Shown: positions 3,986 through 18,835, counted from the first letter of the stretch. The stretch is DNA of 18,835 nucleotides from a virus (IMGVR_UViG_2529292922_000019), one strand, 5' to 3'. The notes: a model not told the origin generated them from the letters alone. Numbers and translations: made by a program.

Positions 3986-4177
3986 TTAAAGACCTGCCGG
4001 GATTTCGTTATTATCCTGGTGAATAACTTTATCGACCGGGTAACAGTTACCGGGAATTTTCTGTTCGGTTGCTGCAGTCACACACTCCTGCATTGTCCTG
4101 TGAACACTGACTGCAATATCAACTGGCTCTCCGGAAACAAGAAAAACTGTCAGAACAAGTGCAAATGCTGTATTCAT
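3986..4177 (-). CDS. ydfD: YdfD-like small lysis/toxic peptide with N-terminal hydrophobic segment (63 aa)
   Basis: Internal ATG of ORF 3986..4231 gives MNTAFALVLTVFLVSGEPVD..., recalled as Qin YdfD. Start overlaps the dicB stop as ATGA (translational coupling). Alternative upstream starts exist at 4186 and 4231. Confidence 0.55.
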   Translation of the reverse strand: MNTAFALVLTVFLVSGEPVDIAVSVHRTMQECVTAATEQKIPGNCYPVDKVIHQDNNEIPAGL

Positions 4178-4362
4178 TGCCAGCATCCTTTTTGTATCGG
4201 ACGTAAACGGGCCAGCATTGAAAGAATGCATATTTTATTTAATAGCTCCCGTTCGTGTTTTCTCTTGTTAATGGCATCTTCAGTAAATACAGGGTTACTG
4301 ATAGTGACACCAATTTCAAAACAACCTTCAGACGTATTAACGTTTGGTAATAACGTTTCCAT
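4174..4362 (-). CDS. dicB: Cell division inhibitor DicB (62 aa)
   Basis: Internal Met of ORF 4174..4467 yields METLLPNVNTSEGCFEIGVTISNPVFTEDAINKRK...KGCWQ, matching remembered Qin DicB almost residue for residue. Lies directly downstream of DicF as in the dicB operon. Confidence 0.8.
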   Translation of the reverse strand: METLLPNVNTSEGCFEIGVTISNPVFTEDAINKRKHERELLNKICILSMLARLRPIQKGCWQ

Positions 4363-4533
4363 TATCGCGTCCTCAACAATGAATTTTGTGATGTGGTGCC
4401 TGGTGCCTCCAGGTGACGTTAACCAGTTAACAATTAACGCCGGATACAGAGAATCCACCCATAACACTGTTTTTGGTTTTAACTGTTCCGCGTGCGCTCA
4501 GCCGCATTCACCGCATCACAAAATTCACTTTAA

Positions 4534-4589
4534 AAACGGCGGCAGAGCAGTCACGGAGTAAAACTGATACCGCCAAACGTCACCAGAAA
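4534..4589 (-). ncRNA. dicF: DicF small regulatory RNA (ftsZ-targeting sRNA) with intrinsic terminator hairpin
   Basis: Reverse complement of 4537..4589 reads TTTCTGGTGACGTTTGGCGGTATCAGTTTTACTCCGTGACTGCTCTGCCGCC, matching the remembered 53-nt DicF sequence, followed by a T-run (A-run 4532..4536 on + strand). Located immediately upstream of dicB. Confidence 0.8.
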
Positions 4590-4920
4590 ATTGATAACAG
4601 AGGGCGTTGCAGCGGGGTTGTCGCTTAAGCGTATGGTCAACCTGACAACCCGGTGTCCTCAACGGGGAAGGAATAACCCCGCCATACTTACCGCCGCGCC
4701 ATTTCGCGGAGTGCCACAACCGGAAGCGCACGGTCGAACTAAATTTAACGACACCGTACAGAGAGACCAATTTCGCCGTGCGCTTTCGCGTTATGCCCTG
4801 ACTTTTCAGGGACATATCCTTTCAGTAAACTGTCAGTGCCGGATGTTCACCCGTGTCCGGCGCACGCACTCCACCTGACCCGTGGAGAACTCCTTAATTA
4901 CCAACCCTCAGGAGGGTGAA

Positions 4921-5178
4921 ATGGATAAAAAGCAAATTGAGGCCCTGCAATCTATTATTGAAAAACAAGATGAAGCTATCAGGATTCTTTCATATCGCAC
5001 TGATATGATACTAAATATGCTTTCTGCATTAACGGCTGCGCTTGGTGGTACAAAAACAAACGTATACCGCGAAGTTGTTATTCAACAGATAGATAAATTT
5101 GAAAAACCATACCAGGTATTAATGCTCATCTTGCAGAACAAGAGAAAGACCATGCTCTTATGGCAATTTCTTCAGTAG
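4921..5178 (+). CDS. Hypothetical small helical protein (about 85 aa), antisense to the leftward early operon
   Basis: Strong SD (AGGAGG, 5-nt spacer) before ATG at 4921. AT-rich. 3' end overlaps the convergent 133-aa gene by 21 nt. No recognisable domain. Confidence 0.4.
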   Translation: MDKKQIEALQSIIEKQDEAIRILSYRTDMILNMLSALTAALGGTKTNVYREVVIQQIDKFEKPYQVLMLILQNKRKTMLLWQFLQ

Positions 5179-5559
5179 CTCTCCCGAAAGTTGAGTAGTT
5201 TTAATTGTTGTTTTGAAATAATCACTGCTTTCACATTTGAGTGATTTCATGGCAATCCAAATGCGGGCCTCTGTGCCTGCATTTGGTTCCAGTTGCTGTA
5301 GACGTTTTGCGTCTTCCAAAAGTAAGGCGATAATGTGTTTCAGCTTCTCATCATTTGCTTGATTCTTGTTTTCAGGCGAATTCTGTCCGCCGAATAGGCG
5401 CTTCTCTTCATACAGACCTATAAAGGCACGACGCACGTTACCGGATATAGTATCGATGGTTTCTTTTTCTACGGTACTCAGGTCAAGAGTCGCCAGTTGA
5501 GAGCGAACCACATTCGATGCCATTTCCTGGAATGGTACTGGTAAATCTTTAAATTCCAT
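5158..5559 (-). CDS. Hypothetical protein (about 133 aa, alpha-helical), second gene of the repressor-proximal leftward module
   Basis: ORF 5158..5571; preferred start ATG at 5559 preceded by GAGG with 6-nt spacing. The ORF-track start at 5571 lacks an SD and overlaps the upstream stop as TGATG. AT-rich. No recognised family. Confidence 0.5.
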   Translation of the reverse strand: MEFKDLPVPFQEMASNVVRSQLATLDLSTVEKETIDTISGNVRRAFIGLYEEKRLFGGQNSPENKNQANDEKLKHIIALLLEDAKRLQQLEPNAGTEARIWIAMKSLKCESSDYFKTTIKTTQLSGELLKKLP

Positions 5560-5570
5560 CGTCAACCTCA

Positions 5571-5723
5571 TCAGTCAGTGTTTCTGGTTAACCAGCGACG
5601 CGCGCCAGCTTCAGTTTTAAACGTTTTGCTTCTGGTATACGTCATCGCGGTAAACGTGCCGTCCTGGTTGGGGAACACGCCACATACCAGAGATTCGTTG
5701 TTGCCAAGATTGAGCATATCCAT
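5571..5723 (-). CDS. ydfA: YdfA-like (DUF1391-type) small protein, about 50 aa
   Basis: Internal ATG preceded by GAGG-N5. Product MDMLNLGNNESLVCGVFPNQDGTFTAMTYTRSKTFKTEAGARRWL resembles remembered Qin YdfA. First gene downstream of the leftward operator region. A longer 77-aa form starting at 5804 is possible. Confidence 0.5.
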   Translation of the reverse strand: MDMLNLGNNESLVCGVFPNQDGTFTAMTYTRSKTFKTEAGARRWLTRNTD

Positions 5724-5904
5724 GTTGACCTCATTTCCCCTTAACGCCGGGGTAGCGGAACAAAAACCTGCTGCATAGTTATTAAAGTTGAACCCTGCCG
5801 TCATGTTCTTACGCCTCGGGCTGGCTACTTAACCCCTGACCACTGCCTGGTAACTCGAAGTATTGCCCTGCATTCTGTGGGGCGGGGTGGGTTGGTATGA
5901 AAAG

Positions 5905-5950
5905 AAGGATACCCATAGGTATTTAAAAGGTAAATACCCATGGGTAAATT
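5905..5950 (-). promoter_or_regulatory. OL-like operator pair (TACC-N4-GGTA palindromes) overlapping a putative leftward early promoter
   Basis: Palindromes ATACCCATAGGTAT (5909..5922) and TACCCATGGGTA (5935..5946, perfect). On the - strand a -35 TTTACC (5948..5943) and -10 TAAATA (5925..5920) with a 17-bp spacer overlap these sites. Confidence 0.45.
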
Positions 5951-5988
5951 TTTGCGGGGTCTTAACTGGTGACTAGTTGTTTGGTGAG

Positions 5989-6407
5989 CTATGATGCGTT
6001 TTGTGCTTTCTTTTTACGGATTTCTTCGTAGATCATATTGTAATACTGTTTTTTCTCTTCAAGAGTTTTTAATAATTTATCCGCTTCACTTTCTGGCAGT
6101 TCGTCTAAGAGATCTAAAAAAATACGTTGTCGTGGCGTTAGAACCCTTGTTTCATAACTGGAGGCTGTGTTCGTTGATGATGAAACGATACCATCCATCC
6201 ATCCCCGGGGTAACCCAAAGGACTCTTCGATAATCTCCACCATATCATCAGCGATCCGTTTTTTCCCTTTTTCCCCTCTGGGTACAACATTCTTGATACA
6301 TAAGAAGGCTCGCGCCCGATCTTTCTGGCCACGTTAACCGCTTTACCATCGCATTTCTCATCACGAATTTTGATGAGTTGCTGTCGTCTAAATTCATATT
6401 TGTCCAT
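5989..6407 (-). pseudogene. DicA/cI-like HTH repressor, reading frame interrupted by a 1-nt deletion in a homopolymer (possibly a sequencing artefact)
   Basis: Two overlapping ORFs (6138..6407 with the HTH; 5989..6243 with a DicA-like C-terminus LTPRQRIFLDLLDELPESEADKLL). One extra T in the T6 run 6259..6264 would fuse them into a single protein of about 139 aa. Confidence 0.65.
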
Positions 6408-6425
6408 AGGTAAATAATAGATGCG

Positions 6426-6478
6426 ATTACCGCAAGGTAAACAACCTGTGGGTATTGACTTTTGTTTACCTGCGGGTG
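6426..6478. promoter_or_regulatory. OR-like operator cluster: three TACC-N4-GGTA-type sites between the repressor and cro-like genes
   Basis: TTACCGCAAGGTAA (6427..6440), AACCTGTGGGTA (6443..6454) and TTACCTGCGGGTG (6464..6476). A -35-like TTGACT lies at 6455..6460. Same half-site architecture as the sites at 5909..5946. Confidence 0.45.
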
Positions 6479-6507
6479 TTCTTTGCTGTGTTTACTAAGG
6501 AGTAGCT

Positions 6508-6789
6508 ATGGAAGAATTAAGAATATTTCTCAATTCTCTTTCGTCAGATGAACAGCGTATGTTTGCATGCGAGTGTGGTACCAGCATCGGTTATCTAAGA
6601 AAGGCATTGAGTAAAGGTCAAGTGTTAGGGGCATCGTTATGTGTCCTTATTGAGCGAGCCAGTAATGGTGAAGTTACACGTCAGCAACTAAGGCCTTTTG
6701 ATTGGATGAATATTTGGCCCGAGCTGGAAGATACCAAAACGTTAACACAACCACTTTCTAGGAGCTTGATTCATGAAAATCAAGCATGA
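6508..6789 (+). CDS. Cro-like / YdaS-family DNA-binding protein
   Basis: 93-aa ORF divergent from the repressor, SD AGGAG upstream. Pattern ...GTSIGYLRKALSKGQ...LRPFDWMNIWPEL resembles YdaS-family Cro analogues (recalled). Confidence 0.6.
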   Translation: MEELRIFLNSLSSDEQRMFACECGTSIGYLRKALSKGQVLGASLCVLIERASNGEVTRQQLRPFDWMNIWPELEDTKTLTQPLSRSLIHENQA

Positions 6790-7198
6790 ACACATCCGCA
6801 TGGCGATGAATGTCTGGGCGCATCCGGACGGCGAAAAAGTGCCGGCTGCGAAAATTACCAAAGCGTATTTCGAGCTGGGAATGACGTTCCCGGAACTGTA
6901 TGACGACAGCCATCCGGAAGCCCTGGCCCGTAATACCCAGAAAATTTTCCGTTGGCTGGATAAAGACACCCCTGATGCTGTTGAAAAAATGCAGGCTCTG
7001 TTACCGGCGATCGAAAAGGCGATGCCGCCTTTGCTGGTGGCCCGTATGCGCAGCCACAGTTCTGAATATTACCGTGAGATCGTCGAACGGAGGGATCGGC
7101 TGGTGAAGGATGTCGATGATTTTGTTGCGTCAGCGGTTGTTTTGTATGACCAGATGAATCGCGGCGGCCCGGCAGGGAATGCTGTGGTGATGCACTAA
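6773..7198 (+). CDS. YdaT-family protein (functional analogue of cII; toxic when derepressed in Rac)
   Basis: 141-aa ORF overlapping the cro-like gene end. N-terminus MKIKHEHIRMAMN...GMTFPELYDDSHPEALARNTQKIFRW matches remembered YdaT. Confidence 0.65.
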   Translation: MKIKHEHIRMAMNVWAHPDGEKVPAAKITKAYFELGMTFPELYDDSHPEALARNTQKIFRWLDKDTPDAVEKMQALLPAIEKAMPPLLVARMRSHSSEYYREIVERRDRLVKDVDDFVASAVVLYDQMNRGGPAGNAVVMH

Positions 7199-7220
7199 AA
7201 GCACGGTGTTCGGGGGTTTT

Positions 7221-8183
7221 ATGAGCAGCAAGCTTCATGGTCTTGTCTGGGAAGGGTGCGCCTTCACCGGCATGATCTTATCCAGGGTGGCGGTTATGGC
7301 CCGTCTTGCAGACTACAGCAATGACGAGGGCGTGTCATGGCCTGCCATTGAAACTATCCGGCGTCAGATCGGTGCAAGAAGTGAATCCACAGTGAAATCG
7401 GCTATTGCAGAACTGGCGAAAGAGGGCTGGCTGACGAAGGAAGAGCGTAAGGTCGGTGGGCGTAATGTAAGCAATATCTATCGGCTTAATGTGGAAAAAC
7501 TCGAAGCAGCTGCGGCGGCGGCGCGTGAGTCATATAAACCGAAAAGAAAAATTAGCCCGGCAAAAAATGACCCGTTAACAGTTGACCCGTCAAATATTGA
7601 CCCCTCAACGGTTGACCCGTCAAATTTTGATGGATCAACTGTTGATAAAAAACTGCCGATTAGGGGGGCGATGATTGACCCCGATCCGTCAGTATTAAAA
7701 CCTGATCCGTCAGATAAAAGATCTTCTTGTCCGGACGCTTCGCAACCGGACCCGCAGACGGCTGAACAGGATTTTTTAACCCGACACCCTGACGCGGTTG
7801 TGTTCAGTGCGAAAAAACGCCAGTGGGGAAGTCAGGAAGATTTGGTGTGCGCACAGTGGATCTGGGGACGAATCGTGAGTCTTTACGAGCAGGCGGCCAG
7901 CTATGATGGCGAGATCGCTAGACCGAAAGAACCCAACTGGACAGCATGGGCCAATGACGTTCGCACAATGCGGATGCTGGATGGCAGAACTCACAGACAA
8001 ATTTGTGAAATGTTTGGGCGTCTCCAGCGGGATTCGTTCTGGGTAAAAAACATCATGAGTCCGGCAAAACTCCGGGAAAAATGGGATGAACTGGTTATCC
8101 GCCTGGGGCGTTCGCCTGCGCAGCGTTGCGTGAATCACATTTCTGAACCGGACACTGAAATTCCGCCGGGCTTCAGGGGGTAA
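7221..8183 (+). CDS. Phage replication initiation protein (O-like; N-terminal winged-helix, internal iteron-encoded linker)
   Basis: ORF 7206..8183 (GTG); preferred ATG at 7221 with G-rich SD. N-terminal HTH-like segment. Contains the direct DNA repeats at 7567..7655 that encode repeated TVDPSN(I/F)D peptides, as in lambda O/ori. Confidence 0.6.
   Translation: MSSKLHGLVWEGCAFTGMILSRVAVMARLADYSNDEGVSWPAIETIRRQIGARSESTVKSAIAELAKEGWLTKEERKVGGRNVSNIYRLNVEKLEAAAAAARESYKPKRKISPAKNDPLTVDPSNIDPSTVDPSNFDGSTVDKKLPIRGAMIDPDPSVLKPDPSDKRSSCPDASQPDPQTAEQDFLTRHPDAVVFSAKKRQWGSQEDLVCAQWIWGRIVSLYEQAASYDGEIARPKEPNWTAWANDVRTMRMLDGRTHRQICEMFGRLQRDSFWVKNIMSPAKLREKWDELVIRLGRSPAQRCVNHISEPDTEIPPGFRG
7567..7655 (+). 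repeat. Iteron-like direct repeats inside the replication gene (putative origin)
   Basis: Four tandem copies of TTGACCC(G/C)T(C/T)AA at roughly 15-bp period (7567, 7582, 7597, 7612), followed by degenerate copies and an A-rich stretch. Further GATCCGTCAG repeats at 7686..7713. Confidence 0.5.
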
Positions 8184-8223
8184 GTGTTAATTTCTGGTCA
8201 TGAGGTAATTTTCAGGAGGGCTT

Positions 8224-8646
8224 GTGGCAAAAGTTTTTACACAAGAAGAGCGGGAAAAAATTAAAGGGCAGGTTGTTGAACTCGTACGCCAGAGTGGGCG
8301 CGAGACGTTACGACAACTGGAAACTAAAACTGGGGCAACAAGATATCTGATGAGCGTTCTGGCCAGAGAGCTGGTTGCCAGTGGCGATGTATACAACTCT
8401 GGTTACGGGTTATTCCCGTCTGAACAGGCGCGTAAGGACTGGCAAAATGCCCGTAAAAAGCTCTCAAGGGCAAAGCTGAAGAAACCATCTGCGGTTGATC
8501 CGGACCTTATCTGGTCATTACCTGACGGAGAAATACGTCGCTACGACAGGCGTCAGAACATAATCTGTCGCGAGTGCCGGAAGAGCGAAGCTATGCAGCG
8601 CGTACTGGCGTTTTATCAGGGGAATTTTGAGGAGGTGGTGCGGTGA
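8224..8646 (+). CDS. Hypothetical phage protein (140 aa)
   Basis: GTG start preceded by AGGAGG. Follows the replication gene in the same orientation. No recognisable domain. Confidence 0.5.
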   Translation: MAKVFTQEEREKIKGQVVELVRQSGRETLRQLETKTGATRYLMSVLARELVASGDVYNSGYGLFPSEQARKDWQNARKKLSRAKLKKPSAVDPDLIWSLPDGEIRRYDRRQNIICRECRKSEAMQRVLAFYQGNFEEVVR

Positions 8647-8889
8647 GTGAATCAAAATGCCAGGTTAATGGCAACAAGATAGAACCATGTGCAGCACTGG
8701 CAAAGTCCCTTGAGCGTGATGCTGAATACACGATGCGAAAAGGTCTGCTGATATACAAAATCTGAAATGAGAGTTTAACTCGCGGTCCTGATTTTGTGAT
8801 GTTGCGTTCCGGTGAATTTTCTAAATTACCAGTTCGGGTTTCATTTTGTCCGTTCTGTGGTGAAAGTCTGAAAACGTGGGAGAACAGAA

Positions 8890-9201
8890 ATGAATGAAAT
8901 TAAAGAAATACCAGTAGTACGTGATGAATATGGCTGCTGGACGCATCCTGAATATGAAAAATTCTGTGACGGTCGGGAATATATTTCAACGGAAGAGTTT
9001 AACGCCTGGATGGAGGAAAATAATCTTCAATACGTCCTCTGCTTCAGAGATGAAGGATGTGCTGACCTTGATGCGTGTGATGCTGATATTTCTGCATGGG
9101 AACCGGAACGACCAGAGGGCAATGGATGGTTTATTGGTTCAATACATGACACCGAAGATGGCCCGGTTTGTGTATGGCTGAGAAATAAGGTCGAAGCATA
9201 A
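8890..9201 (+). CDS. Hypothetical phage protein (103 aa, Cys/acidic-rich)
   Basis: ATG start with upstream GGGAGAA. Same orientation as the early-right operon. No recognised family. Confidence 0.5.
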   Translation: MNEIKEIPVVRDEYGCWTHPEYEKFCDGREYISTEEFNAWMEENNLQYVLCFRDEGCADLDACDADISAWEPERPEGNGWFIGSIHDTEDGPVCVWLRNKVEA

Positions 9202-9333
9202 AGGCTATAAACCGACTAACAACTAAATACTGAAGATTTAAATCAGAAACGATTTTTATTAAATCCTTAACCGGAGGGATTCCTGCACCCTCAAATCATC
9301 AGGAGGCCGCCCGAAAGGGCGGTGGAGATAATA

Positions 9334-9855
9334 ATGGGAATAACTAAAGAACGATTGTTGGAAATAGCAAACCTTAGTGATTGGGCATTAAGTGATGAGA
9401 GAATTGTTTCTCCTCATGCTTATGAGTCAGTTACAAGTATAGAAATAACAACAATGGCTAGAATGCTGCTTGGTTATTTCAAAATAGAAAATAAAAAACA
9501 GATGGATAGTAATGTTGATATATGTGAGATTTTAGACGATTGGGGGGCTTGGGTTGTGGCTGGTAATAGTTCTATTGATTGGCAGGAAATAGCTGATAAA
9601 TATAAAAATGTTGTTCCTCATGGTAAAAAATCACGTCGTCAGTGCAGCAATGATGAAGGGCGAATTATTGACATTAGTATCCTTAGGTTAGAAAGATATA
9701 AGCAACAAGAATATGAGTTAATTGTTGCTCATTTCGTGATTGGTTTATCTCTTCGTGCTATTGCAAAGCAACAAGGATGTTCAGATGGAACAATTCGTAA
9801 AAGATTGCAAAAAGCCTTAGGTTTTTTGACTGGATATATAGCAATTACCAGTTAA
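9334..9855 (+). CDS. HTH transcriptional regulator with C-terminal sigma-70 region-4/LuxR-like helix-turn-helix (possible late-gene regulator or cargo regulator)
   Basis: ORF 9322..9855; preferred ATG at 9334 with GGAG at 6-nt spacing. C-terminus YELIVAHFVIGLSLRAIAKQQGCSDGTIRKRLQKALGFL is a classic region-4-like HTH. AT-rich codon usage. Stop codon overlaps the stop of the convergent nuclease gene (TTAA 9852..9855). Confidence 0.55.
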   Translation: MGITKERLLEIANLSDWALSDERIVSPHAYESVTSIEITTMARMLLGYFKIENKKQMDSNVDICEILDDWGAWVVAGNSSIDWQEIADKYKNVVPHGKKSRRQCSNDEGRIIDISILRLERYKQQEYELIVAHFVIGLSLRAIAKQQGCSDGTIRKRLQKALGFLTGYIAITS

Positions 9856-10493
9856 GAGTCAGCGGTTTTTTTACCAGTGTAATGGTATAAGGATACTCCC
9901 ATGTGTCTTACATGATATGGAAGCGCTGTTGCTGGATGCTTTGTGATACTCTTAAAGCGGAGGGGAGAGCCTTCCGCTTCAATTTCTGCGTCCGAAACGG
10001 TCGTAGAGAAAAATTCTTTCCATTCATTGAATTTTACTGCTGATTTGTCAGACTTTATATAAATTAGAATTCCTCCATGATCGTCACGTGACGTACCCGT
10101 GCCGTAACGTTCGGTTAGCTGAATCCAGCCATTATGAATAGATTTGGGGCCTCTCCATAATTTTGCTTCACCGATCCATTCGAATTTTCCGAATTGATGT
10201 TTAACTAATAAATCAACGTGACCGCCATGTTGAGTATCATGTTCAACATCATAAAACCTACCTTTCAGGAAATTTTTGATCGACGCTGTTAGCTCGTCCT
10301 CTCCCCACTTAGCATCTTGATAGAAGTGTTTGTCATTTTCTAAATTCTGAATAGCGTCGTCTAAATCTTCATAGAGTTGCTTTACAAAAATATTTTTGTC
10401 TGCAGCTAATTTTCTTTGAACCATTCCCCTAAATTCAGGATCCATTCTAATTAATGATTGAAGGTCTGCAGTACAGATGTTTACATCACTCAT
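9852..10493 (-). CDS. PD-(D/E)xK nuclease-fold protein (about 213 aa), last gene of the AT-rich operon
   Basis: ORF 9852..10556; likely start MSDVN at 10493, overlapping the upstream gene stop by 8 nt (ATGAGTGA). Motif ...DVEHD...GGHVDLLVK-x10-EWIGEAKLW fits the D...(D/E)xK arrangement of restriction-endonuclease-like nucleases. Confidence 0.55.
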   Translation of the reverse strand: MSDVNICTADLQSLIRMDPEFRGMVQRKLAADKNIFVKQLYEDLDDAIQNLENDKHFYQDAKWGEDELTASIKNFLKGRFYDVEHDTQHGGHVDLLVKHQFGKFEWIGEAKLWRGPKSIHNGWIQLTERYGTGTSRDDHGGILIYIKSDKSAVKFNEWKEFFSTTVSDAEIEAEGSPLRFKSITKHPATALPYHVRHMGVSLYHYTGKKTADS

Positions 10494-10914
10494 GCAGACT
10501 CTCCAAAAGACTCGAAGGAGTAAAGTATGGATAAAGATACTGGCTAAAATTATCAACCAATTCGCCAGTTTCTGGATGGTAAAAACTTCCTGTGTCTAAA
10601 GCATAGGAAATAAGATCATCTTCAACTGGTATTGGTTCTTCCGTTAAATTATCAATGTATTGAAAATGCATATCCAATAGATGTGCTTTATAGCTAGATA
10701 AATAATCAGTTGCTTTTATTAGCAGGATATAGTCATCTTTCGTATCAGTTAGATAGGTTAAACCATTGATAAGGGTTTTGTATGTAAAGTGATTGATATT
10801 TTTAGCATCTTTACTAACCAGAAAAAGAAAAAGATCACGACACACACTGCGAACAGGATCATTAAAATCCTGCTCTATTTGCGTGATAATGTCGTGATAT
10901 ATACTCTTTTTCAT
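10486..10914 (-). CDS. Hypothetical acidic protein (142 aa), middle gene of the AT-rich operon
   Basis: ATG at 10914 overlaps the upstream frame stop as ATGA. C-terminus overlaps the downstream nuclease start. Acidic, Tyr-rich, no recognised domain. Confidence 0.5.
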   Translation of the reverse strand: MKKSIYHDIITQIEQDFNDPVRSVCRDLFLFLVSKDAKNINHFTYKTLINGLTYLTDTKDDYILLIKATDYLSSYKAHLLDMHFQYIDNLTEEPIPVEDDLISYALDTGSFYHPETGELVDNFSQYLYPYFTPSSLLESLHE

Positions 10915-11201
10915 TTATGGCCTGATGATCTCGCTCTTCTTTTCTCTTCACAGGACTTAACAGAATCCAATATTTTTTCAACAATAAATATAATCGAATC
11001 AATGTTGTTACAGTTCTTCGCAATTGCTTCATGCAACCTAATTCTAGGATTATCAAGCATTGTCCTTTTTCCTGGTAATATTAACTCTACTGATAAAATA
11101 TGTGAAGAACTTTGTGGTAAATCCCAAATTTTTCCCAACTTAAACTTTGTCAATATTGGGCTTGCGGACTCTCCACTATGATGGTAAACATCTTGACGCA
11201 A
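10911..11201 (-). CDS. Hypothetical ORF; probably the C-terminal continuation of the upstream 222-aa gene rather than an independent gene
   Basis: The reading frame is open from 11363 down to 10911 with no ATG or SD (first candidate start is TTG at 11201). It overlaps the stop of the upstream gene, whose frame differs by one base at an A6 run (T6 on + strand, 11352..11357). Confidence 0.35.
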   Translation of the reverse strand: MRQDVYHHSGESASPILTKFKLGKIWDLPQSSSHILSVELILPGKRTMLDNPRIRLHEAIAKNCNNIDSIIFIVEKILDSVKSCEEKRRARSSGHK

Positions 11202-11332
11202 ACACTTTTGACTTGGTTTGAGTTTTAAAGAACTTGTATTGCCATCTGAGGTGATAAAAGATACATGAGAAATTCTGCCATCTACTTTTTCGTAAAGATC
11301 TTGTATTGAACCAAATAATTCAAGAGGATTGT

Positions 11333-12001
11333 TTAAAATAACGCCAGCTTCTTTTTTATAAATTTAGCCACAAGGTATTGTTGAGGCTGTGATTCACTTC
11401 TTGGAAGGATAGATAAATCAATCGTAAGAATTAATATTTTTTCTGCAGGCATTAGCATGATGGTATTAAAGCATTGCGTGACTTGGCGTGTTTTGCATTT
11501 TATTTCTCCACCATTAGCACGTAATTCCATACCCGCATCGCTAAGATGTGTTGGGTCAAGCTCTATCACTTCAGTGTAATACGCTTTGGATAAAAAAACA
11601 GCAGTGTCAATTTGTTTATCACGAATGATATCTTGACGTAGTTCAGCAAAATGCAGCTCAGTATCAGCAACTAACAGCTCCTCTCTGGATAAAGGAATTG
11701 GGTATTTTTCTGAGAAGGGGCTATTGTCCTTTTTCTGATTTGTGAAAATTGTTTGTAATTTTGCTACGTCTTCATCGGTGATTCTATAAATAGAAAGTAA
11801 TCGATTCCCGCTAAAAATTAAACCTTTCCAGAAATCGTCGATTCTGTCTTTTAGGTCGGGATTATGCTGAACTACACTATTTACACGTTCAATAAAAAGG
11901 GGTAATCCTTGGGCCGTTACACCCAGTGATGAACCAAGAAGCTTACGGGTGTTGCGCCAGCCAAAGCGTGAATTGATGTTTTTTACTGTTTGCTCAAGCA
12001 T
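11333..12001 (-). CDS. Hypothetical protein (222 aa), first gene of the AT-rich operon; possible HEPN-like Rx6H motif
   Basis: ATG at 12001 preceded by AAGGAAG (the ORF-track GTG at 12007 is less likely). Contains ERVNSVVQH (R-x6-H). AT-rich. If the homopolymer at 11352..11357 is corrected it would extend to about 365 aa. Confidence 0.5.
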   Translation of the reverse strand: MLEQTVKNINSRFGWRNTRKLLGSSLGVTAQGLPLFIERVNSVVQHNPDLKDRIDDFWKGLIFSGNRLLSIYRITDEDVAKLQTIFTNQKKDNSPFSEKYPIPLSREELLVADTELHFAELRQDIIRDKQIDTAVFLSKAYYTEVIELDPTHLSDAGMELRANGGEIKCKTRQVTQCFNTIMLMPAEKILILTIDLSILPRSESQPQQYLVAKFIKKKLALF

Positions 12002-12347
12002 TAACACTTCCTTAATTTTCCCTTAACAATTTAGGGTGCTAAACTTTTTTGCGCAGTTTACATAAAAAAATAGTGCGTACGCAAAAACTATCTAACATGA
12101 TGAGCTTTAACCGGGAAATTTGTATATGTTGTGAGCATAAAGTTGGCTGAGAAATCTAAAACGGGTAGAATGACTGCGGGTGCTTGAGGCTATCTGTCTC
12201 AGGCATGAACACCAAAAGGCAGATAGAGAAAAGCCCCAGTTAACATTACGCGTCCGGCAAGACGCTTAACATTAATCTGAGGCCATATCTATGCTCTACA
12301 CACGTAGGTTAGCCTCTTACGTGCCGAAAGGCAAGGAGAAGCAGGCT

Positions 12348-12503
12348 ATGAAGCAGCAAAAGGCGATGTTAATCGCCCTGATCGTCATCTGTTTAACCGT
12401 CATAATGACGGCACTGGTAACGAGGAAAGACCTCTGCGAGGTACGAATCCGAACCGGCCAGACGGAGGTCGCTGTCTTCACAGCTTACGAACCTGAGGAG
12501 TAA
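12348..12503 (+). CDS. hokD: Hok/Gef-family type I toxin (51 aa), HokD/RelF-like
   Basis: MKQQKAMLIALIVICLTVIMTALVTRKDLCEVRIRTGQTEVAVFTAYEPEE, near-identical to remembered HokD. AAGGAG SD upstream. An in-frame upstream ATG at 12291 gives a 70-aa extended ORF. Confidence 0.85.
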   Translation: MKQQKAMLIALIVICLTVIMTALVTRKDLCEVRIRTGQTEVAVFTAYEPEE

Positions 12504-12571
12504 GAGACCAGGCGGGGGAGAATCCCTCGCCACCTCTGATGTGTCAGGCATCCTCAACGCACCCGCACTTA

Positions 12572-12596
12572 ACCCGCTTCGGCGGGTTTTGTTTTT
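12572..12596 (+). terminator. Rho-independent terminator downstream of hok
   Basis: Hairpin CCCGC-TTCG-GCGGG (12573..12586) followed by TTTTGTTTTT. Confidence 0.55.
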
Positions 12597-12668
12597 CCTG
12601 GCATTCTGGTTTACAATTCGCACGCCAGCCTGAACAACTGGCACCTGCTGCGCCAGCAGAGACAACCG

Positions 12669-12947
12669 ATGGCGCACGATACCAAATTACACAATTCTGA
12701 TGATTCTGCCGTCTTTGCCAGCAGGCACGGGCGGCGTTCCCGCACTTTCAAATCTGACTGGTTCCAGCATCCCCCATGCACTGAAGAACAGGCCGAGTGG
12801 CTAATTCAGTGCTACCGCAGACACGGATACGAGATTAAGAAAGCCCTCAGCCTCGATTATCGTCACTGGATAATCTCCGTCAGGCTTCCTTACTCCGAAC
12901 GACCACCGCGTCCGTCCCGCACATTCCAGCAACGCATCTGGAGGTAA
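12669..12947 (+). CDS. Hypothetical protein (92 aa) in the position occupied by rem in Qin
   Basis: ORF with ATG start immediately upstream of the DUF968 gene. Identity with Rem not verifiable from memory. Confidence 0.45.
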   Translation: MAHDTKLHNSDDSAVFASRHGRRSRTFKSDWFQHPPCTEEQAEWLIQCYRRHGYEIKKALSLDYRHWIISVRLPYSERPPRPSRTFQQRIWR

Positions 12948-12948
12948 C

Positions 12949-13998
12949 GTGCGGGTATTACTTCGACCTGTTCTGGTACCGGAACTCGGGCTGGTGATCG
13001 TTAAGCCGGGCCGTGAATCCATGCCGGTATTCCACAATACCCGGGTACTGGTGGAGCCGGAACCGAAAAGCATGCGTAATCTGCCGTCCGGGGTCGTTCC
13101 TGCCGTTCGCCAGCCGCTGGCGGAGGATAAATCATTACTGCCATTTTTCAGCGACGAACGAGTGATTCGTGCTGCTGGTGGCGCTGGCGCATTGTCTGAC
13201 TGGTTACTGCGCCATGTTAAATCCTGCCAGTGGCCACACGGTGATTATCACCACAGTGAAACCGTCATTCACCGTTATGGTACCGGCGCAATGGTGTTGT
13301 GCTGGCACTGCGACAACCAGCTGCGCGACCAGACCTCCGAATCACTCGGGCAACTTGCTCACCAAAACCTGTCAGCATGGATGATTGACGTCATACGCCA
13401 TGCAATGAATGGCTCGCAGGAACGGGAATTATCGCTGGCTGAATTATCCTGGTGGGCGGTCCGCAATCAGGTGGCGGACGCGCTACCGGAAGCGGTATTA
13501 CGTCGTTCGCTGGGGTTGCGTGCGGAAAAAATCCGCTCAATGTACCGTGAAAGCGACATCGTACCGGGAGAGCAGACCGCCACCAGCATACTGAAACAGC
13601 GCACAAAAAATCTTGCGCCGCTGCCTCACGCCCACCAGCAACAGAACCCACCACAGGAAAAGACGGTGGTCAGCATTGCCGTTGATCCTGAGTCTCCGGA
13701 ATCTTTCATGAAACGACCTAAACGTCGCCGCTGGGTTAACGAGAAATACACACGCTGGGTGAAGACACAGCCGTGTGCGTGTTGTGGTAAGCCAGCCGAC
13801 GATCCCCATCACCTGATTGGTCATGGTCAGGGCGGAATGGGGACAAAATCTCACGATATTTTCACGCTACCGCTGTGTCGGGAGCATCACAACGAGCTTC
13901 ATGCGGATCCGCTGACGTTCGAAGAAAAGCATGGTTCTCAGGTTGATTTAATTTTTCGTTTTCTTGATCACGCCTTTGCAACTGGCGTGCTTGGGTAA
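12949..13998 (+). CDS. ydfU: DUF968 / YdfU-like protein with C-terminal Cys/His (HNH-like) motif
   Basis: 349-aa ORF, GTG start after GGAGG. C-terminal CACCGKPADDPHHLIGHGQGG...LCREHHNELH. Same length and gene context as remembered Qin YdfU. Confidence 0.6.
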   Translation: MRVLLRPVLVPELGLVIVKPGRESMPVFHNTRVLVEPEPKSMRNLPSGVVPAVRQPLAEDKSLLPFFSDERVIRAAGGAGALSDWLLRHVKSCQWPHGDYHHSETVIHRYGTGAMVLCWHCDNQLRDQTSESLGQLAHQNLSAWMIDVIRHAMNGSQERELSLAELSWWAVRNQVADALPEAVLRRSLGLRAEKIRSMYRESDIVPGEQTATSILKQRTKNLAPLPHAHQQQNPPQEKTVVSIAVDPESPESFMKRPKRRRWVNEKYTRWVKTQPCACCGKPADDPHHLIGHGQGGMGTKSHDIFTLPLCREHHNELHADPLTFEEKHGSQVDLIFRFLDHAFATGVLG

Positions 13999-14010
13999 AA
14001 GAGGTGACTG

Positions 14011-14370
14011 ATGCTCATAGATTTGGTTTTACCTTACCCGCCGACGGTGAACACTTACTGGCGACGCCGTGGCAGCACATATTTTGTATCAAAAGTCGGT
14101 GAGCGTTATCGCCGTGATGTGGCGCTTATTGTTCGCCAGCAGCAACTGAAATTAAACCTGTCCGGAAGGCCGGCAATAGAAATTATTGCAGAGCCACCGG
14201 ATAAGCGCCGTCGTGACCTGGACAATATCCTGAAGGCACCACTGGATGTACTGACGCATGCGGGGCTGCTCATAGACGACGAGCAGTTTGATGAAATTAA
14301 TATTGTGCGCGGTCAGCTTGTTCCTGGTGGGCGGTTGGGGATAAAAATCACAGAACTGGAGTATGCATGA
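14011..14370 (+). CDS. rusA: RusA Holliday-junction resolvase
   Basis: 119-aa ORF with GAGG SD. Motif PPDKRRRDLDNILKAPLDVLTHAGLLIDDEQ and overall pattern match remembered RusA. Typical position just upstream of Q. Confidence 0.85.
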   Translation: MLIDLVLPYPPTVNTYWRRRGSTYFVSKVGERYRRDVALIVRQQQLKLNLSGRPAIEIIAEPPDKRRRDLDNILKAPLDVLTHAGLLIDDEQFDEINIVRGQLVPGGRLGIKITELEYA

Positions 14371-15056
14371 ATAACCAGTATTTACAGTTTGTTCGTGAGC
14401 AACTCATGATTGCCACCGCCGATTTGAGTGGATCAACAAAAGGGCAGCTTGAGGCCTGGCAGGAGAATGCCATGTTTGATACAGGGCGTTACAGGCGTAA
14501 AAAAATCCGGTACCGCGATGAAGTGACTGGAAAAATGATAACGCGGGATAATCCACCAATCCCGGGAAAGCAATCGCTGGCGAAGGGGGCGTCAATTCCT
14601 CTCGTCAGTCCGGTTGAGTTTTTGACATCATCGTGGCGGCGGGCTGTTCTGTCTCTTGAAGAACATCATAAAGCCTGGTTGTTGTGGTGTTACAGCGGGA
14701 GTATTTGTTGGGAATATCAGATCGCGATAACACAGTGGGCGTGGAATGAATTTAATACTCAATCCGGTACCAGAAAAATTGCTGGGAAAACGCAGGAACG
14801 CCAGAAAAAATTAATCTGGCTGGCGGCGCAGGCAGTAAAAGCAGAACTTTTTGGTGGGGAAGGTTATGAATATCAGGAGCTGGCATTACTGGCGGGAGTG
14901 ACAACTAAAAACTGGTCCAAAACATTTACTCGTCACTGGGTTGCAATGAAACACATTTTTCACCGACTGGATAGTGAGGCTTTATTATTTGTAATGAGAA
15001 CACGTTCAAAACAAAAGGCGGCATTTTCAAAGCAAAGTGTTGCAAAAGTAGATTGA
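14367..15056 (+). CDS. Putative late antiterminator Q-like protein
   Basis: 229-aa ORF overlapping the rusA stop (ATGA). Position between rusA and a terminator/tRNA cluster is the canonical Q slot. Family assignment by context, not by motif. Confidence 0.55.
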   Translation: MNNQYLQFVREQLMIATADLSGSTKGQLEAWQENAMFDTGRYRRKKIRYRDEVTGKMITRDNPPIPGKQSLAKGASIPLVSPVEFLTSSWRRAVLSLEEHHKAWLLWCYSGSICWEYQIAITQWAWNEFNTQSGTRKIAGKTQERQKKLIWLAAQAVKAELFGGEGYEYQELALLAGVTTKNWSKTFTRHWVAMKHIFHRLDSEALLFVMRTRSKQKAAFSKQSVAKVD

Positions 15057-15104
15057 AAGGCATATATTTCATGCAAATCTGATATTTTGCCGATTTTGTA
15101 CGTG

Positions 15105-15137
15105 ATGGCAAAATCAAACAAAACCCGCCCACAAGCG
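15105..15137 (+). terminator. Rho-independent terminator after the Q-like gene
   Basis: Stem CCCGC (15114..15118) / GCGGG (15125..15129) with 6-nt loop, followed by T7 and preceded by an A-run (potentially bidirectional). Confidence 0.6.
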
Positions 15138-15213
15138 GGTTTTTTTGTGCCACTTATCTCGGATAGACATGGTGAATGCGCTGGTGGAGGAGATAAGGGT
15201 GATTTTTGTATGC

Positions 15214-15242
15214 TTGCAACATTGATTTCGTAACGTTATTAT
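15214..15242 (+). promoter_or_regulatory. Sigma-70-type promoter upstream of the tRNA cluster (possible pR'-like late promoter)
   Basis: -35 TTGCAA (15214..15219), 17-bp spacer, -10 TATTAT (15237..15242), about 10 nt before the first tRNA. Confidence 0.45.
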
Positions 15243-15251
15243 CCTGCGCCC

Positions 15252-15327
15252 GGCCCTTTAGCTCAGTGGTGAGAGCGAGCGACTCATAATCGCCAGGTCG
15301 CTGGTTCAAATCCAGCAAGGGCCACCA
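15252..15327 (+). tRNA. tRNA-Ile2 (anticodon CAU, lysidine type), ileX/ileZ-like, CCA encoded
   Basis: Cloverleaf folds by hand: acceptor GGCCCTT/AAGGGCC, anticodon loop CTCATAA, T-loop TTCAAAT. Near-identical to remembered E. coli ileX. Confidence 0.85.
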
Positions 15328-15328
15328 A

Positions 15329-15404
15329 CCGCCACTAGCCATCAGGAAAGAGCGTCAACCCTTTAAGTTGAGTGTGCGAGGTTCGAGTCCCCGGTGGTGG
15401 TCCA
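15329..15404 (+). tRNA. Atypical tRNA-like gene (anticodon loop CCTTTAA; weak D-stem); possibly a degenerate Arg/Lys-type tRNA
   Basis: Acceptor CCGCCAC/GTGGTGG, anticodon stem TCAAC/GTTGA, T-arm GTTCGAGTC, CCA encoded. Position 33 is C rather than U and the D-stem has only two clean pairs. Confidence 0.45.
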
Positions 15405-15417
15405 TTATCGGTATTCT

Positions 15418-15491
15418 GCGTTGTTAGCTCAGCAGGACAGAGCAATTGCCTTCTAAGCAATCGGTCACTGGTTCGACTCCAGTACAACGCG
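15418..15491 (+). tRNA. tRNA-Arg (anticodon UCU), argU/argN-like; no encoded CCA
   Basis: Acceptor GCGTTGT/ACAACGC, D-stem GCTC/GAGC, anticodon stem ATTGC/GCAAT with loop CTTCTAA, T-arm ACTGG-TTCGACT-CCAGT. Confidence 0.8.
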
Positions 15492-15507
15492 CTACACTTA
15501 TTTTCCC

Positions 15508-15533
15508 GGCTCGCTTTTGCGGGCCTTTTTTTT
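15508..15533 (+). terminator. Rho-independent terminator after the tRNA cluster
   Basis: Stem GGCTCGC (15508..15514) / GCGGGCC (15519..15525) with TTTT loop, followed by T8. Confidence 0.6.
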
Positions 15534-15619
15534 AAATGTCTCACAATTCAGACGGTTGACAGTTGTCTGTTTTGCGGGGAGTTTGTTAAGTAAGCGACTC
15601 GTCAGAACCGTATTGATAT

Positions 15620-17191
15620 TTACTGAGAGCTCAGATCAACTTTCCAGGGCAACAGATCGCGTACCCGGTTTGCCGGCCAGTCCTGGATATGTTCAATGAC
15701 GTAACGCAGCCACTTTTCTGGCTCCACATTGTTCAGACGGCATGTGCCGATCAGCGAGTACAACACCGCCGCATGTTCACCACCGCTGTCGGAACCCGCG
15801 AACATCCAGTTTTTCCGGCCTACGGCCACTCCCCGTAAGGCGTTCTCTGCGATGTTGTTGTCGATTTCCACCCAGCCATTACTGCAGTACACGTTCAGTG
15901 CATCCCACTGTTTCAGCAGGTATGCGAACGCTTTTGCCGTATCTGAGTGACGCGACAGTGTTTTCATCTGTTGCTGTATCCAGTCATACAGTGACTGCAT
16001 CAGTGGCGCGGCTCTGGCTTTTCTTGCCGCCAGACGCTGTTCTGCTGAACAGCACCGGACCTCTGCCTCGATGGCATACAGTTCACCGATACGCTGCAGG
16101 GCTTCCGTGGTGATGTAGGTGGGCGCTCTTGCATGCACATCGTGGATTTTTCTCCGGGCATGAGCCATACACGCGGCTTCCGTTATTCTGCCGGATTCGT
16201 ATAACGCCCGGTAACCACCGTAAGCATCGGCCTGAAGCACACCGCTGTAACCGGCCAGGTGATTTTGTGGATGGATACCTTTCCGGTCCGGACTGTACGC
16301 GAACCAGACCGCCGGGGGCATCTGTGAACCGGCGTTACGGTCATCACGGACGTAGACCCACAGCCGGGCTGTCCGGGTTTTACCGCTGCCCGGCTCCTGG
16401 ACCGGGACGGGGATATCATCAGCATGGACTTTACCGGGCATCAGCACATACTGGCGCAGGACGTCATACAGCGGCTCCAGCAGTTCAGCAACAGCACCTG
16501 TCCAGCGCCCCAGTGTGGCACGGCTCAGCTCCACGCCCTGACGACGGTATATTTCTGACTGGCGGTATAACGGCAGATGGTCTGCATATTTCCCGGTGAC
16601 AACATGGGCCAGAAGCCCCGCTCCGGCATAACTGCGTGCAATGGGTTTTGAAGGTACTGGTGCCTGCACGATATGGTCGCACCGGCAACAGGCCTGTTTC
16701 GGACGTTGTGTTTCGATAACCTTAAAGGCGCTGCTGATAAGCTCCAGTTGCTCTGACACATCACATCCCAGAGAACTGAGTTCACCACCACAGGCAGGAC
16801 AGCATTCCTCTTCCGGCCGGATAACCCGGGTTTCACGGGGAAGTGAGGCCGGTAACGGTTTACGGGCTGAAGACTGGCGCAGGGCGGATGGCAGTACCGG
16901 GTCATATTGCTCACCCAGCGTTTCCGCCATTTCTTCCTGAAGTGCGCTGATTCGCTCCTGTGCTTCCTGTATCTGCCGTTCGGTTTTTGCACGAAGTTTT
17001 TCTGAGCTTTTACCGAACTGCATACGTTGCAGTTTCGCAACCAGCGCCTTCAGCCGGTTGATTTCGGAAGCATAAGCCGCCACCCGCTGTGAGAGCAGGC
17101 GGTTGTATTCAGCCATCTGGCGGATGGTGTCCTGTTGCGTCTGCAACAGTGCCCGCAGGCGGGCGTTCTCATGAGCAAGTGAGGTGTCCAT
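15620..17191 (-). CDS. tnpC: IS66-family transposase TnpC (orf3)
   Basis: 523-aa ORF with N-terminal coiled-coil/leucine-zipper region and a Cys cluster, typical size and layout for IS66 TnpC. Confidence 0.85.
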
Positions 17192-17210
17192 ATCCTCACT
17201 TTACAACGGG

Positions 17211-17558
17211 TTATATGCGGATTCCAGCGCGTTCCGTTCGTTTCGGGTGCTTCCAGTTGATACCTTCAAGAAGCATGGATAACTGAGCCGGAGTAAGGTG
17301 CACCTTGCCGTCACGGGTGACTGGCCAGACGAAGCGGCCCCGCTCCAGGCGTTTGGTGAAGAGGCACAGTCCGTCACTGTCAGCCCACAACACTTTTATC
17401 TGGTCACCCCGGCGTCCGCGGAAGATGAACAGGTGTCCGGAGAACGGGTCATCCTTCAGGACGTTCTGAACTTTTGATGCCAGGCCGTTAAAGCCATTTC
17501 GCATATCGGTGATACCTGCAACCAGCCAGATACGCGAACCTGCAGGGAGAGATATCAT
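17211..17558 (-). CDS. tnpB: IS66-family TnpB (orf2)
   Basis: 115-aa ORF MISLPAGSRIWLVAGITDMRNGFNGLA..., characteristic of IS66 orf2. Confidence 0.85.
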   Translation of the reverse strand: MISLPAGSRIWLVAGITDMRNGFNGLASKVQNVLKDDPFSGHLFIFRGRRGDQIKVLWADSDGLCLFTKRLERGRFVWPVTRDGKVHLTPAQLSMLLEGINWKHPKRTERAGIRI

Positions 17559-18042
17559 CAGTGGCTGCTCCCTTTTATTTCGCGGATAAGTGTCTGTAAT
17601 AACGCCGGCGTCAGTTTACCTTTAAGCCTGAGAGTTCCGGCCGGCAGAACCAGCTCACAACACAGACTGTCGGACGGTGTATTTATCTGCTCTGGTTCCT
17701 GTGCGGGGGCCGGGATTTTATTATCCGGCTCCGGCGTTAACGTCACGGGAAGCAGTGCCGGCATATTTTTCCGGAAGGCAGCAGGCCACCTTTCCGGTAT
17801 TGATGGCGCCAGTTGAAGAGCAGGTTATCGTTGATTCCGTTTTCCCGGGCGATCTGCGCCACACAGGCTCCGGGCTGCAGTGACTGCTCCACTAAGGCGA
17901 TTTTAAACTCATAAGGGAAGTTGGGCCGCCGGGGACGTTTTTTTACCACGGGGGCTTCGGATATAACGGTGCTTTCAGGACGTACGACTGGTACCGTGGA
18001 AAATTGTCCGTAAAGGCAGGCATCAAGTTCCTGCTCCGACAT
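17558..18042 (-). pseudogene. tnpA: IS66-family TnpA (orf1), apparently split by a -1 frameshift at a T5 run (start codon uncertain)
   Basis: HTH-containing frame (..IARENGINDNLLFNWRHQYRKG..) ends at 17743, and a second frame (17558..17764) overlaps the tnpB start as ATGA. One extra T at 17765..17769 would fuse them. Confidence 0.45.
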
Positions 18043-18289
18043 GCCTGCGGGCAAAGGCCACGAAAGGCCAGCTCTCCGAAAGCGCACGAACATACTACAA
18101 ACTGTTGATTTTGGTACACCCAGGCGACGCCCGGCCACAACCCGGGGTAAATGTTCTTCAAAGTGAAGACGTAAAGCTTCAGTGATCCAGGTCCGGTGTT
18201 TCATACGATAGTGTCCATTAAAAATGATGGACATTATTTTTTGTAGAGCCGGAGGAAACAGACCAGACGGTTTTAAATGAGCCGGTTAC

Positions 18290-18506
18290 GCTCAAAAAGC
18301 CAGTGAGTCATCACAAAGTGCAGCAGAAGCTGAATTGTCAAGAAAGACGGCAGAAAGTGCAGCCGGTAATGCAGCCAGGGATGCAACGACCGCAGCAGAA
18401 AAAGCCCGGGAGTCAGCAGAAAGCGCACAGTCAGCGGAACAAAGCAGGATAGCGGCGGAAGACGCCGTAAACCGAATCCCCACCGTGGTGGGACCTCCCG
18501 GGCCAA
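18290..18506 (+). pseudogene. Orphan fragment of a side-tail-fibre-like gene (Ala/Ser/Glu-rich repeats plus GPPGP), cut on both sides by IS elements
   Basis: Frame open from the IS66 right end, reading ...AESAAGNAARDATTAAEKARESAESAQSAEQSRIAAEDAVNRIPTVVGPPGP, and runs into the IS50-like end, where a stop is created inside the IS terminus. No start codon or upstream context. Confidence 0.5.
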
Positions 18507-18835
18507 CTGTCTCTTGATCAGATCTCCTGATCAAGAGACTTCATCACCAGGTAACCCTCAACCATATCCTGAAGTCTGAACCAGCCATCCCACATGACTA
18601 CCCAACCGGGGCGACCGGTGCGTTTGCTGTCATGCCATCGCCCCAGTTTCGCCAGTTTCAGACAGGCCCATTTCAGTGTCGGCATCTGTGACGGAAGCGG
18701 TTTTCCTTCCAGCTTAACCCACAGCAGTTTCCACTCTGTCGGCGTCAGTATTTTCTCACAGCTGTCATTTTGTGTTTCTTCACTGATACCGCCCTGCCGC
18801 AGGCCCAGCACCCGCACCGCGATAAACGCCTTGAT
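18507..18835 (-). mobile_element. IS4-family (IS50/Tn5-like) element, inside-end terminus and 3' part of its transposase; continues beyond window
   Basis: 18507..18525 reads CTGTCTCTTGATCAGATCT, identical to the remembered 19-bp inside end of IS50. The transposase stop codon lies within it, as in IS50. Confidence 0.7.
18518..18835 (-). CDS. IS50-like transposase, C-terminal portion (partial, 5' end outside window)
   Basis: Frame open to the window edge. C-terminus ...LGRWHDSKRTGRPGWVVMWDGWFRLQDMVEGYLVMKSLDQEI is homologous in pattern to the Tn5 Tnp C-terminus (...LGGFMDSKRTGIASWGALWEGW...) but clearly divergent. Confidence 0.7.
   Translation of the reverse strand: MKAFIAVRVLGLRQGGISEETQNDSCEKILTPTEWKLLWVKLEGKPLPSQMPTLKWACLKLAKLGRWHDSKRTGRPGWVVMWDGWFRLQDMVEGYLVMKSLDQEI

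Follow-up and report, generated by a model that had tools for sequence, protein, structure and literature searches.

An IS50-identical terminus in a prophage side tail fibre gene as the inside end of an ISEc13 copy, and the conservation of that end across the IS50 subgroup

The DNA at the right edge of the viral sequence analysed here (18,835 nucleotides, referred to as the window) is the end of an already named insertion sequence, ISEc13, which is common in E. coli, and it does not represent a new element. We are highly confident that positions 18507-18835 are the inside end (IE) side of an ISEc13 copy inserted in a prophage side tail fibre gene (stf), that the exact terminus is conserved throughout the IS50 subgroup, and that the neighbouring element, ISCro1, has been rearranged. 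As a known ISEc13 lies in a decayed prophage beside a known ISCro1, the region can be viewed as a case of ordinary genome decay. The layout is given in Table 1.

Table 1. Features of the window, with positions counted from its first nucleotide
Feature	Position	Strand	Remarks
Lambdoid prophage, left part	1..15589	+	integrase, then RusA, antiterminator Q and tRNA cluster
ISCro1 (IS66 family)	15590..18289	-	99.9% identical to annotated ISCro1 copies; NCBIfam NF033517
ISCro1 genes	tnpC 15620-17191, tnpB 17211-17558, tnpA 17558-18234	-	
stf internal fragment	18290..18506	+	about nt 549-766 of a 1,314-nt gene; ends in collagen-like GPPGP region
ISEc13 copy, IE-proximal 329 bp	18507..18835	-	runs on past the window end; 100% identical to annotated ISEc13 copies
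19-bp transposase-binding end (predicted)	18507..18525	+	identical to IS50 IE; contains complement of the tnp stop codon
GATC (Dam) sites in the 19-bp end	18516-18519, 18521-18524		
Terminal hairpin	18509..18539	.	13-bp perfect inverted repeat, 5-nt loop
ISEc13 transposase gene, 3' end	18518..18835	-	105 codons plus stop, residues 353-457 of 457 aa

Two sequences are regarded as the same IS when their DNA identity exceeds about 95%, and 18507-18835 is 100% identical to copies annotated as 'IS4-like element ISEc13 family transposase' (the name ISEc13 being that of ISfinder), so that the visible part of the window copy differs from ISEc13 at no position. A 636-bp query (18200-18835), in which the ISEc13 part is preceded by the stf stump and a portion of ISCro1, gave matches in 4,615 E. 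coli records, and the ISEc13 annotation was carried by the matches listed over the ISEc13 part of that query. In the EPEC strain E2348/69 the query matched 34 places, and the genome holds about 30 ISEc13 copies. Within the literature searched, ISEc13 appeared only in catalogues or lists of mobile elements, and no experiment on its transposition, Dam-dependence or binding was found.

A complete reference copy (locus L001, 2503-4052) is 1,550 bp long with both ends present; it opens with an IE-type end and closes with ...GGGGATTTGTGTATAAGAGACAG, which gives CTGTCTCTTATACACAAAT as the outside end (OE). This OE agrees at 17 of 19 positions with the canonical IS50 OE, CTGACTCTTATACACAAGT, as read from an IS50 copy (L066), the differences being at positions 4 and 18. 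The window copy shares its terminal 19-mer, 13-bp hairpin and C-terminal peptide with three ISEc13 copies (L001, L003 and L004), which are flanked by the 8-bp direct repeats cccgaaga, ccgggcgg and ctgtgcgg. When the empty site was rebuilt with a single copy of the repeat, it gave a single ungapped match of 300 bp, at least 80% of which was found in 5,394 genomes, and because the reconstructed site matches without a gap, the boundaries of ISEc13 and its 8-bp target duplication must be real. As only 329 bp lie within the window, the copy there could be truncated or rearranged beyond the window end.

The IE, CTGTCTCTTGATCAGATCT, has a single match in the window, with 0 mismatches, at 18507-18525 of the plus strand; about 0.01 chance matches would be expected even with 3 mismatches tolerated. 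The same 19-mer is the IE of the IS50L that adjoins aph(3')-IIa in a Tn5 remnant (L125), where IS50L ends ...ATCAAGATCTGATCAAGAGACAG directly upstream of the resistance gene; it also closes two IS50-like copies on a Citrobacter plasmid (L128), and it is the IE of IS50 copies of 97-98% identity in Aeromonas and Macromonas (L066, L084). An initial sequence-only reading had matched the terminus to the IS50 inside end, and the 19/19 agreement with real IS50 copies shows that this match was correct. That reading had also placed the transposase stop codon within the terminus, and indeed a TGA lies at 18518-18520 on the minus strand, corresponding to IE positions 12-14, where it closes an open frame that runs from the window edge (18835) to 18518 and ends ...KSLDQEI*, that is ...GYLVMKSLDQEI*. 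The terminus reads CTGTCTC and thus has the 5'-NT (CTG...) form; such ends have been described for the IS10 and IS50 subgroups of the IS4 family (PMC2266710). By analogy with the established biology of IS50, the GATC-bearing end may be under Dam regulation.

The 457-aa transposase of ISEc13 could be aligned over its full length with that of Tn5 (E=6e-84), with an identity of 42% overall (HMMER), 39% by tblastn and 41% over the part encoded in the window; IS50 itself would show essential identity. The initial description of the encoded C-terminus as only loosely similar to Tn5 Tnp therefore holds. The catalytic residues fall outside the window and were read on a full-length copy that is identical to the window in the overlap: the DDE triad, D93/D193/E323, aligns with D97/D188/E326 of Tn5, and Y316/R319/E323/K330 aligns with Y319/R322/E326/K333, so that the protein has the triad as well as the Y(2)R(3)E(6)K motif expected of the IS50 subgroup of the IS4 family. 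The full-length protein scored 514 bits against NCBIfam NF033590 and 70 bits against Tnp_DNA_bind (PF14706), with DDE_Tnp_1 also above the Pfam cutoff, while Dimer_Tnp_Tn5 (PF02281, cutoff 26.7 bits) scored 28.1 bits on the window fragment and 24.1 bits on the full protein. The fragment encoded in the window is the Tn5-type dimerisation domain, and the protein has both the N-terminal DNA-binding and the C-terminal dimerisation domain that define the IS50 subgroup. By transposase, domains and ends the element is thus a member of the IS4 family, IS50 subgroup, in agreement with its first description as IS50-like. Relative to Tn5, the transposase is best kept in its N-terminal end-binding domain (56% identity) and around YREK (57%), identity elsewhere being 25-42%; the DNA-contact residues compared were those reported in the Tn5 co-crystal work. 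At the position where the IS50 inhibitor starts, the alignment to Tn5 transposase shows no Met in the ISEc13 protein.

The combination of an exact IS50 end with a divergent transposase, which was what first drew attention to this sequence, was borne out (19/19 for the IE against 42% for the protein), yet it is a trait of the whole IS50 subgroup and is not peculiar to the window copy. A scan for the exact 19-mer in one genome per bacterial species returned at least 120 loci. Among the matches listed, the exact IE accompanied transposases with the following identities to that of ISEc13: 98-99% in E. coli and E. whittamii, 77% in Scandinavium, 76% in Phytobacter, 73% in Pantoea, 70-73% in Budvicia, 62% in Serratia nevei, 56% in Xenorhabdus and 44-46% in uncultured Gammaproteobacteria. 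The 19-mer is likewise carried by IS50 proper and by a Parashewanella element with a transposase that is 56-58% identical to that of IS50. The conservation is broad and not absolute, as two Vibrio relatives (L126, L127) have a variant that agrees at 16 of 19 positions. The end of ISEc13 can be identical to that of IS50 in spite of a 42% identical transposase because the end and the parts of the protein that read it are conserved across the IS50 subgroup.

The alternative scenario, that ISEc13 is a hybrid that recently acquired its IE from IS50 by recombination, would account for a perfectly matching end on an element with so different a protein, but it is very improbable for a number of reasons. 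The identity between the two elements stops exactly at position 19, where IS50 continues with TGATCCCC and ISEc13 with CCTGATCAAG, which argues against a recent recombination tract. Moreover, the same 19-mer is present in lineages of Enterobacterales, Aeromonas, Shewanellaceae and uncultured Gammaproteobacteria with transposases of 44-77% identity, the other end is conserved too (17/19), conservation within the protein is highest in the end-binding domain, and the slight variation of the IE in the two Vibrio relatives is what gradual divergence predicts.

A further scenario, to which we assign almost no probability, is that of a true IS50/Tn5, or of a mini-Tn5 inserted in the laboratory; the 19-mer is the IS50 IE, as used in mini-Tn5 vectors, and such constructs do occur in public assemblies (L023, L027, L053), where the end is followed by GGCCGCCTAGGCC. 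This is refuted by the window sequence inward of position 19, which from position 20 reads CCTGATCAAGAGACTTC... and neither the TGATCCCCTGCGCC of IS50 nor the SfiI linker of mini-Tn5, and by the 310 bp inside the end, which are 100% ISEc13 and whose protein product shares only 41% identity with the Tn5 transposase. The three assemblies deserve a comment of their own: in Bradyrhizobium (L023), Paraburkholderia terricola (L027) and Herbaspirillum frisingense (L053) the IS50 IE is followed by GGCCGCCTAGGCCGAATTC..., the SfiI linker of mini-Tn5 vectors, and either mini-Tn5 insertions made in the laboratory or vector sequence seem to be present in these assemblies.

The scan yielded two other observations on the distribution of the end. 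In a draft genome of Parashewanella hymeniacidonis, dozens of contig ends lie about 100-120 bp from an exact IS50-type IE; the element concerned is 1,536 bp long, with the OE CTGACTCTTCTACACAAAT, a 9-bp duplication and the 56-58% identity to the IS50 transposase already noted, and this is a large IS expansion that has fragmented the assembly. A clade with transposases at about 45% identity to that of ISEc13 (L031, L045, L050, L123) has the exact IE without direct repeats, its flanks being inverted repeats; in one case (L045) an element of 1,484 bp has the IE-type 19-mer at both ends and perfectly inverted flanks (tctcccctcgcggg / cccgcgaggggaga).

Compared with IS50, ISEc13 is thus alike in its IE (19/19), in its OE as read from the reference copies (17/19), in the stop codon and the two GATC sites within the IE, in its domain architecture with the DDE/YREK residues, and in its length (1,550 versus 1,534 bp). 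It differs in its 42% identical transposase, which has no Met at the inhibitor start position, in a T at OE position 4, in the possession of a 13-bp terminal hairpin, in duplicating 8 bp where IS50-like copies duplicate 9 bp, and in its strong preference for C-rich hairpin loops, of which the flanks of IS50 show no sign. ISVa18 and a related element of Vibrio parahaemolyticus, both of the IS50 subgroup, have transposases 51-52% identical to that of ISEc13 and share its OE-type end, including the CCCC that follows; their IE, CTGTCTCTTGATCACAAGT, agrees with that of IS50 and ISEc13 at 16 of 19 positions, their duplication is 9 bp, and the C-rich motif was found in neither of the two flanks seen.

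The insertion preference of the ISEc13 clade is pronounced. Of 25 distinct flanks of ISEc13-clade elements, 19 (counted by eye) have a CCYCYC-type motif 5-8 bp beyond the end, whereas it was present in 0 of 39 Parashewanella-type flanks and 0 of 12 IS50 flanks. Elements of the clade follow a motif of the CCCTCTCCC type (L001, L003, L004 and many among L005-L124), and their targets appear to be the loops of CCCTCTCCC...GGGAGAGGG hairpins, either REP-like or terminator hairpins (...CCCTAACCCTCTCCC-loop-GGGAGAGGGTTAGGG...). The window flank (18487-18506), ggtgggacctcccgggccaa, carries the C-rich motif as well. Intact stf reads cctccc-gggccaaa-ggggga at the ISEc13 breakpoint, and the window is broken as cctccc-gggccaa|a-ggggga; the stf site thus resembles the C-rich hairpin loops that ISEc13 favours, as if imitating them. 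The target duplication was 8 bp in all three ISEc13 copies and 9 bp in the other members of the IS50 subgroup that were examined (L128, L126, L127, L061, L069). As a separate observation, elements of the Serratia nevei type follow stems of the AAAAAGGGGC type.

The terminus had also been noted as part of a 13-bp perfect inverted repeat with 18527..18539, and this was confirmed, the outer arm lying at 18509-18521 and the loop comprising 5 nt. The predicted hairpin has a folding energy of about -24 kcal/mol (z about -4.6), whichever strand is taken; its inner arm encodes the C-terminal K-S-L-D-Q and contributes a third GATC at 18529-18532. Positions 20-33 are conserved at 14 of 14 nucleotides in six lineages, against an identity of only 71-75% over the 200-300 nt next to them; five codons that could vary freely in their third positions are invariant, which points to selection on the nucleotide sequence. 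The repeat is degraded in the lineages at 62% and 56% protein identity; within the ISEc13 clade it is an integral and conserved part of the element. A role as an intrinsic terminator was rejected, as there is no T-run and the hairpin remained unscored in the terminator scan; our best guess is that it serves to stabilise the tnp mRNA at its 3' end or to modulate how the IE-side end is used.

Stand-alone palindromes of 35 bp were also encountered, each a back-to-back pair of complete IE-type termini (CTGTCTCTTGATCAG-ATCTC-CTGATCAAGAGACAG). They are present in many E. coli genomes, mostly once per genome, and outside E. coli in Rahnella, Serratia and others (L009, L059, L082, L085, L091, L103, L108). 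The three E. coli palindromes examined (L131-L133, 701-735) are all located between lldD and trmL; in K-12 this place is taken up by about 80 bp of a different sequence with two hairpins, and there is no empty site. No target duplication was seen at the 35-bp palindromes, and their flanks are often inverted. The absence of duplications and of an empty site in K-12 disfavours active micro-MITEs, and a simple internal deletion through the AAGAGAC repeats predicts a retained duplication, which was not seen; extra steps, such as two insertions followed by recombination, would therefore be needed. The palindromes are probably relics of ISEc13-like elements and not mobile units.

One possibility is that the ISEc13 clade constitutes an undescribed, structure-directed branch of Tn5-like elements, with GC-rich hairpin loops as targets, duplications of 8 bp and not 9 bp, and a conserved terminal 33-bp hairpin that survives in 35-bp relics, and that it might cross-mobilise Tn5-based transposons; as a whole we consider this proposal rather unlikely and put it forward tentatively. 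The insertion into hairpin loops, the nucleotide-level conservation of the terminal hairpin and the 35-bp double-terminus relics may be unreported. If confirmed, a hairpin-loop preference in relatives of Tn5 with near-identical ends could show how transposases of the Tn5 type gain target selectivity. The possible cross-mobilisation of Tn5-based tools follows from the near identity of the ISEc13 ends with those of IS50 and the mosaic end, and, if confirmed, transposons of the Tn5 or mosaic-end type used to mutagenise strains such as E2348/69 might be acted on by the ISEc13 transposase already present there. The OE of ISEc13, CTGTCTCTTATACACAAAT (L001, 4034-4052), has a T at position 4, as does the engineered hyperactive Tn5 mosaic end, CTGTCTCTTATACACATCT, and the two sequences disagree at positions 17-18 only.

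By analogy with IS50/Tn5, ISEc13 would move by cut-and-paste DDE transposition, in which the transposase would bind the two 19-bp ends, one of the IE type shared with IS50 and one of the OE type, excise the element and insert it through a staggered cut, with 8 bp being duplicated in the case of ISEc13. The window copy landed in the collagen-like part of the prophage stf gene, at cctccc-gggccaa|a-ggggga. A simple insertion predicts that about 1,221 further bp of ISEc13, ending ...TGTGTATAAGAGACAG, would be followed by cgggccaa-agggggaacagg and the rest of stf.

The remnant of the interrupted gene is 100% identical over 218 bp to E. coli genes annotated as 'prophage tail fiber N-terminal domain-containing protein' and 99.5% identical to the side tail fiber gene of phage 434, which identifies it as a lambdoid side tail fibre gene. 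Its position was correctly recognised from the outset as a stump sandwiched between two IS elements, as 217 bp of stf lie between ISCro1, which ends at 18289 (a base that can be assigned to stf or to ISCro1 alike), and ISEc13, with the latter junction reading ...gtgggacctcccgggccaa|CTGTCTCTTGATCAGATCTCCTGATCAAGAGACTTCATC... The accompanying claim that the stump records two independent insertions in one gene could be upheld only in part. It stands for ISEc13, where the junction fits the target preference of the element, but not for ISCro1, which lacks a target duplication and has a different sequence, not stf, on its other side. The neighbouring element has 99.9% identity to ISCro1, the tnpA-tnpB-tnpC layout and the ends GTAAGCG... 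and GTAACCG...; it differs from other copies in its split tnpA and in the missing 8-bp duplication typical of the IS66 family (flanks tttgttaa versus gctcaaaa), and the latter implies rearrangement. One or more IS-mediated rearrangements must therefore have occurred later on.

The block of ISCro1, stump and ISEc13 recurs at 99.9% identity on a draft contig (AIFB01000050.1, GCA_000249195.2), where the left flank is unrelated and consists of an IS21 fragment; in both genomes with this block the other flank of ISCro1 is not stf. This is the only public contig with the stf/ISEc13 junction, and it ends 69 bp past the point corresponding to the window end, still within the IS. Neither this insertion site nor any of the three junctions was found in 5,426 complete E. 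coli genomes, and the exact junction of stump and ISEc13 had no match in one genome per species. Because the block recurs beside unrelated DNA, the stf/ISCro1 and stf/ISEc13 junctions are likely to be older and shared. A later recombination or deletion through ISCro1 would then have brought the block next to the Q-tRNA region, with loss of the lysis and morphogenesis genes. Prophage deletions bordered by IS elements in this way are very common in pathogenic E. coli.

Whether the two sides of ISCro1 were once part of the same prophage is a finer question. The prophage in the window (1..15589) is 99.9% identical to one of EPEC E2348/69, in which an ISEc13 (L004, 3601-5150, duplication ctgtgcgg) lies 32 bp downstream of the point where ISCro1 starts in the window (15589/15590), and at that place the E2348/69 prophage has neither ISCro1 nor an stf stump. 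It is conceivable, with a probability that we would put just short of even, that the stump is flanking DNA brought in by recombination between IS copies of different prophages, so that the stump and the Q-tRNA region would derive from different prophages. The ISEc13 of E2348/69 without an accompanying ISCro1, the lack of a duplication around ISCro1 (tttgttaa versus gctcaaaa) and the same block beside an IS21 fragment on AIFB01000050.1 all agree with this possibility, as does the richness of EPEC genomes in stf-bearing prophages (a median of 8 places per genome). However, Q, the tRNAs and stf are all on the plus strand, as a simple internal deletion within one prophage would leave them, and under a different-prophage origin, too, stf would have to adjoin the two IS elements at two different positions; such an origin refines the main explanation, an ISEc13 insertion in stf beside a rearranged ISCro1, more than it contradicts it. 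For annotation, the gain is that the 217-bp stf pseudogene fragment of this degraded EPEC-type prophage can be labelled as flanked by ISEc13 and ISCro1, which is of little wider importance.

Some minor observations were made on this region. The window differs from AIFB01000050.1 by three single-T changes in homopolymer length and one SNP (17765, 18237, 18271, 18775); the 1-nt change in the T-run at 17765 splits ISCro1 tnpA into two ORFs (17558-17764 and 17743-18234) and may be a sequencing artefact. Directly behind the tRNA cluster, the prophages of the two strains, that of the window and E2348/69, have been entered by different IS elements at points about 30 bp apart. Downstream of Q, ARAGORN predicts three tRNAs in the window (15252-15492) with the anticodons CAT, TTT and TCT, whereas RefSeq lists two only (Ile and Arg) for the 99.9% identical prophage of E2348/69, the middle tRNA (15329-15404) being unannotated there.
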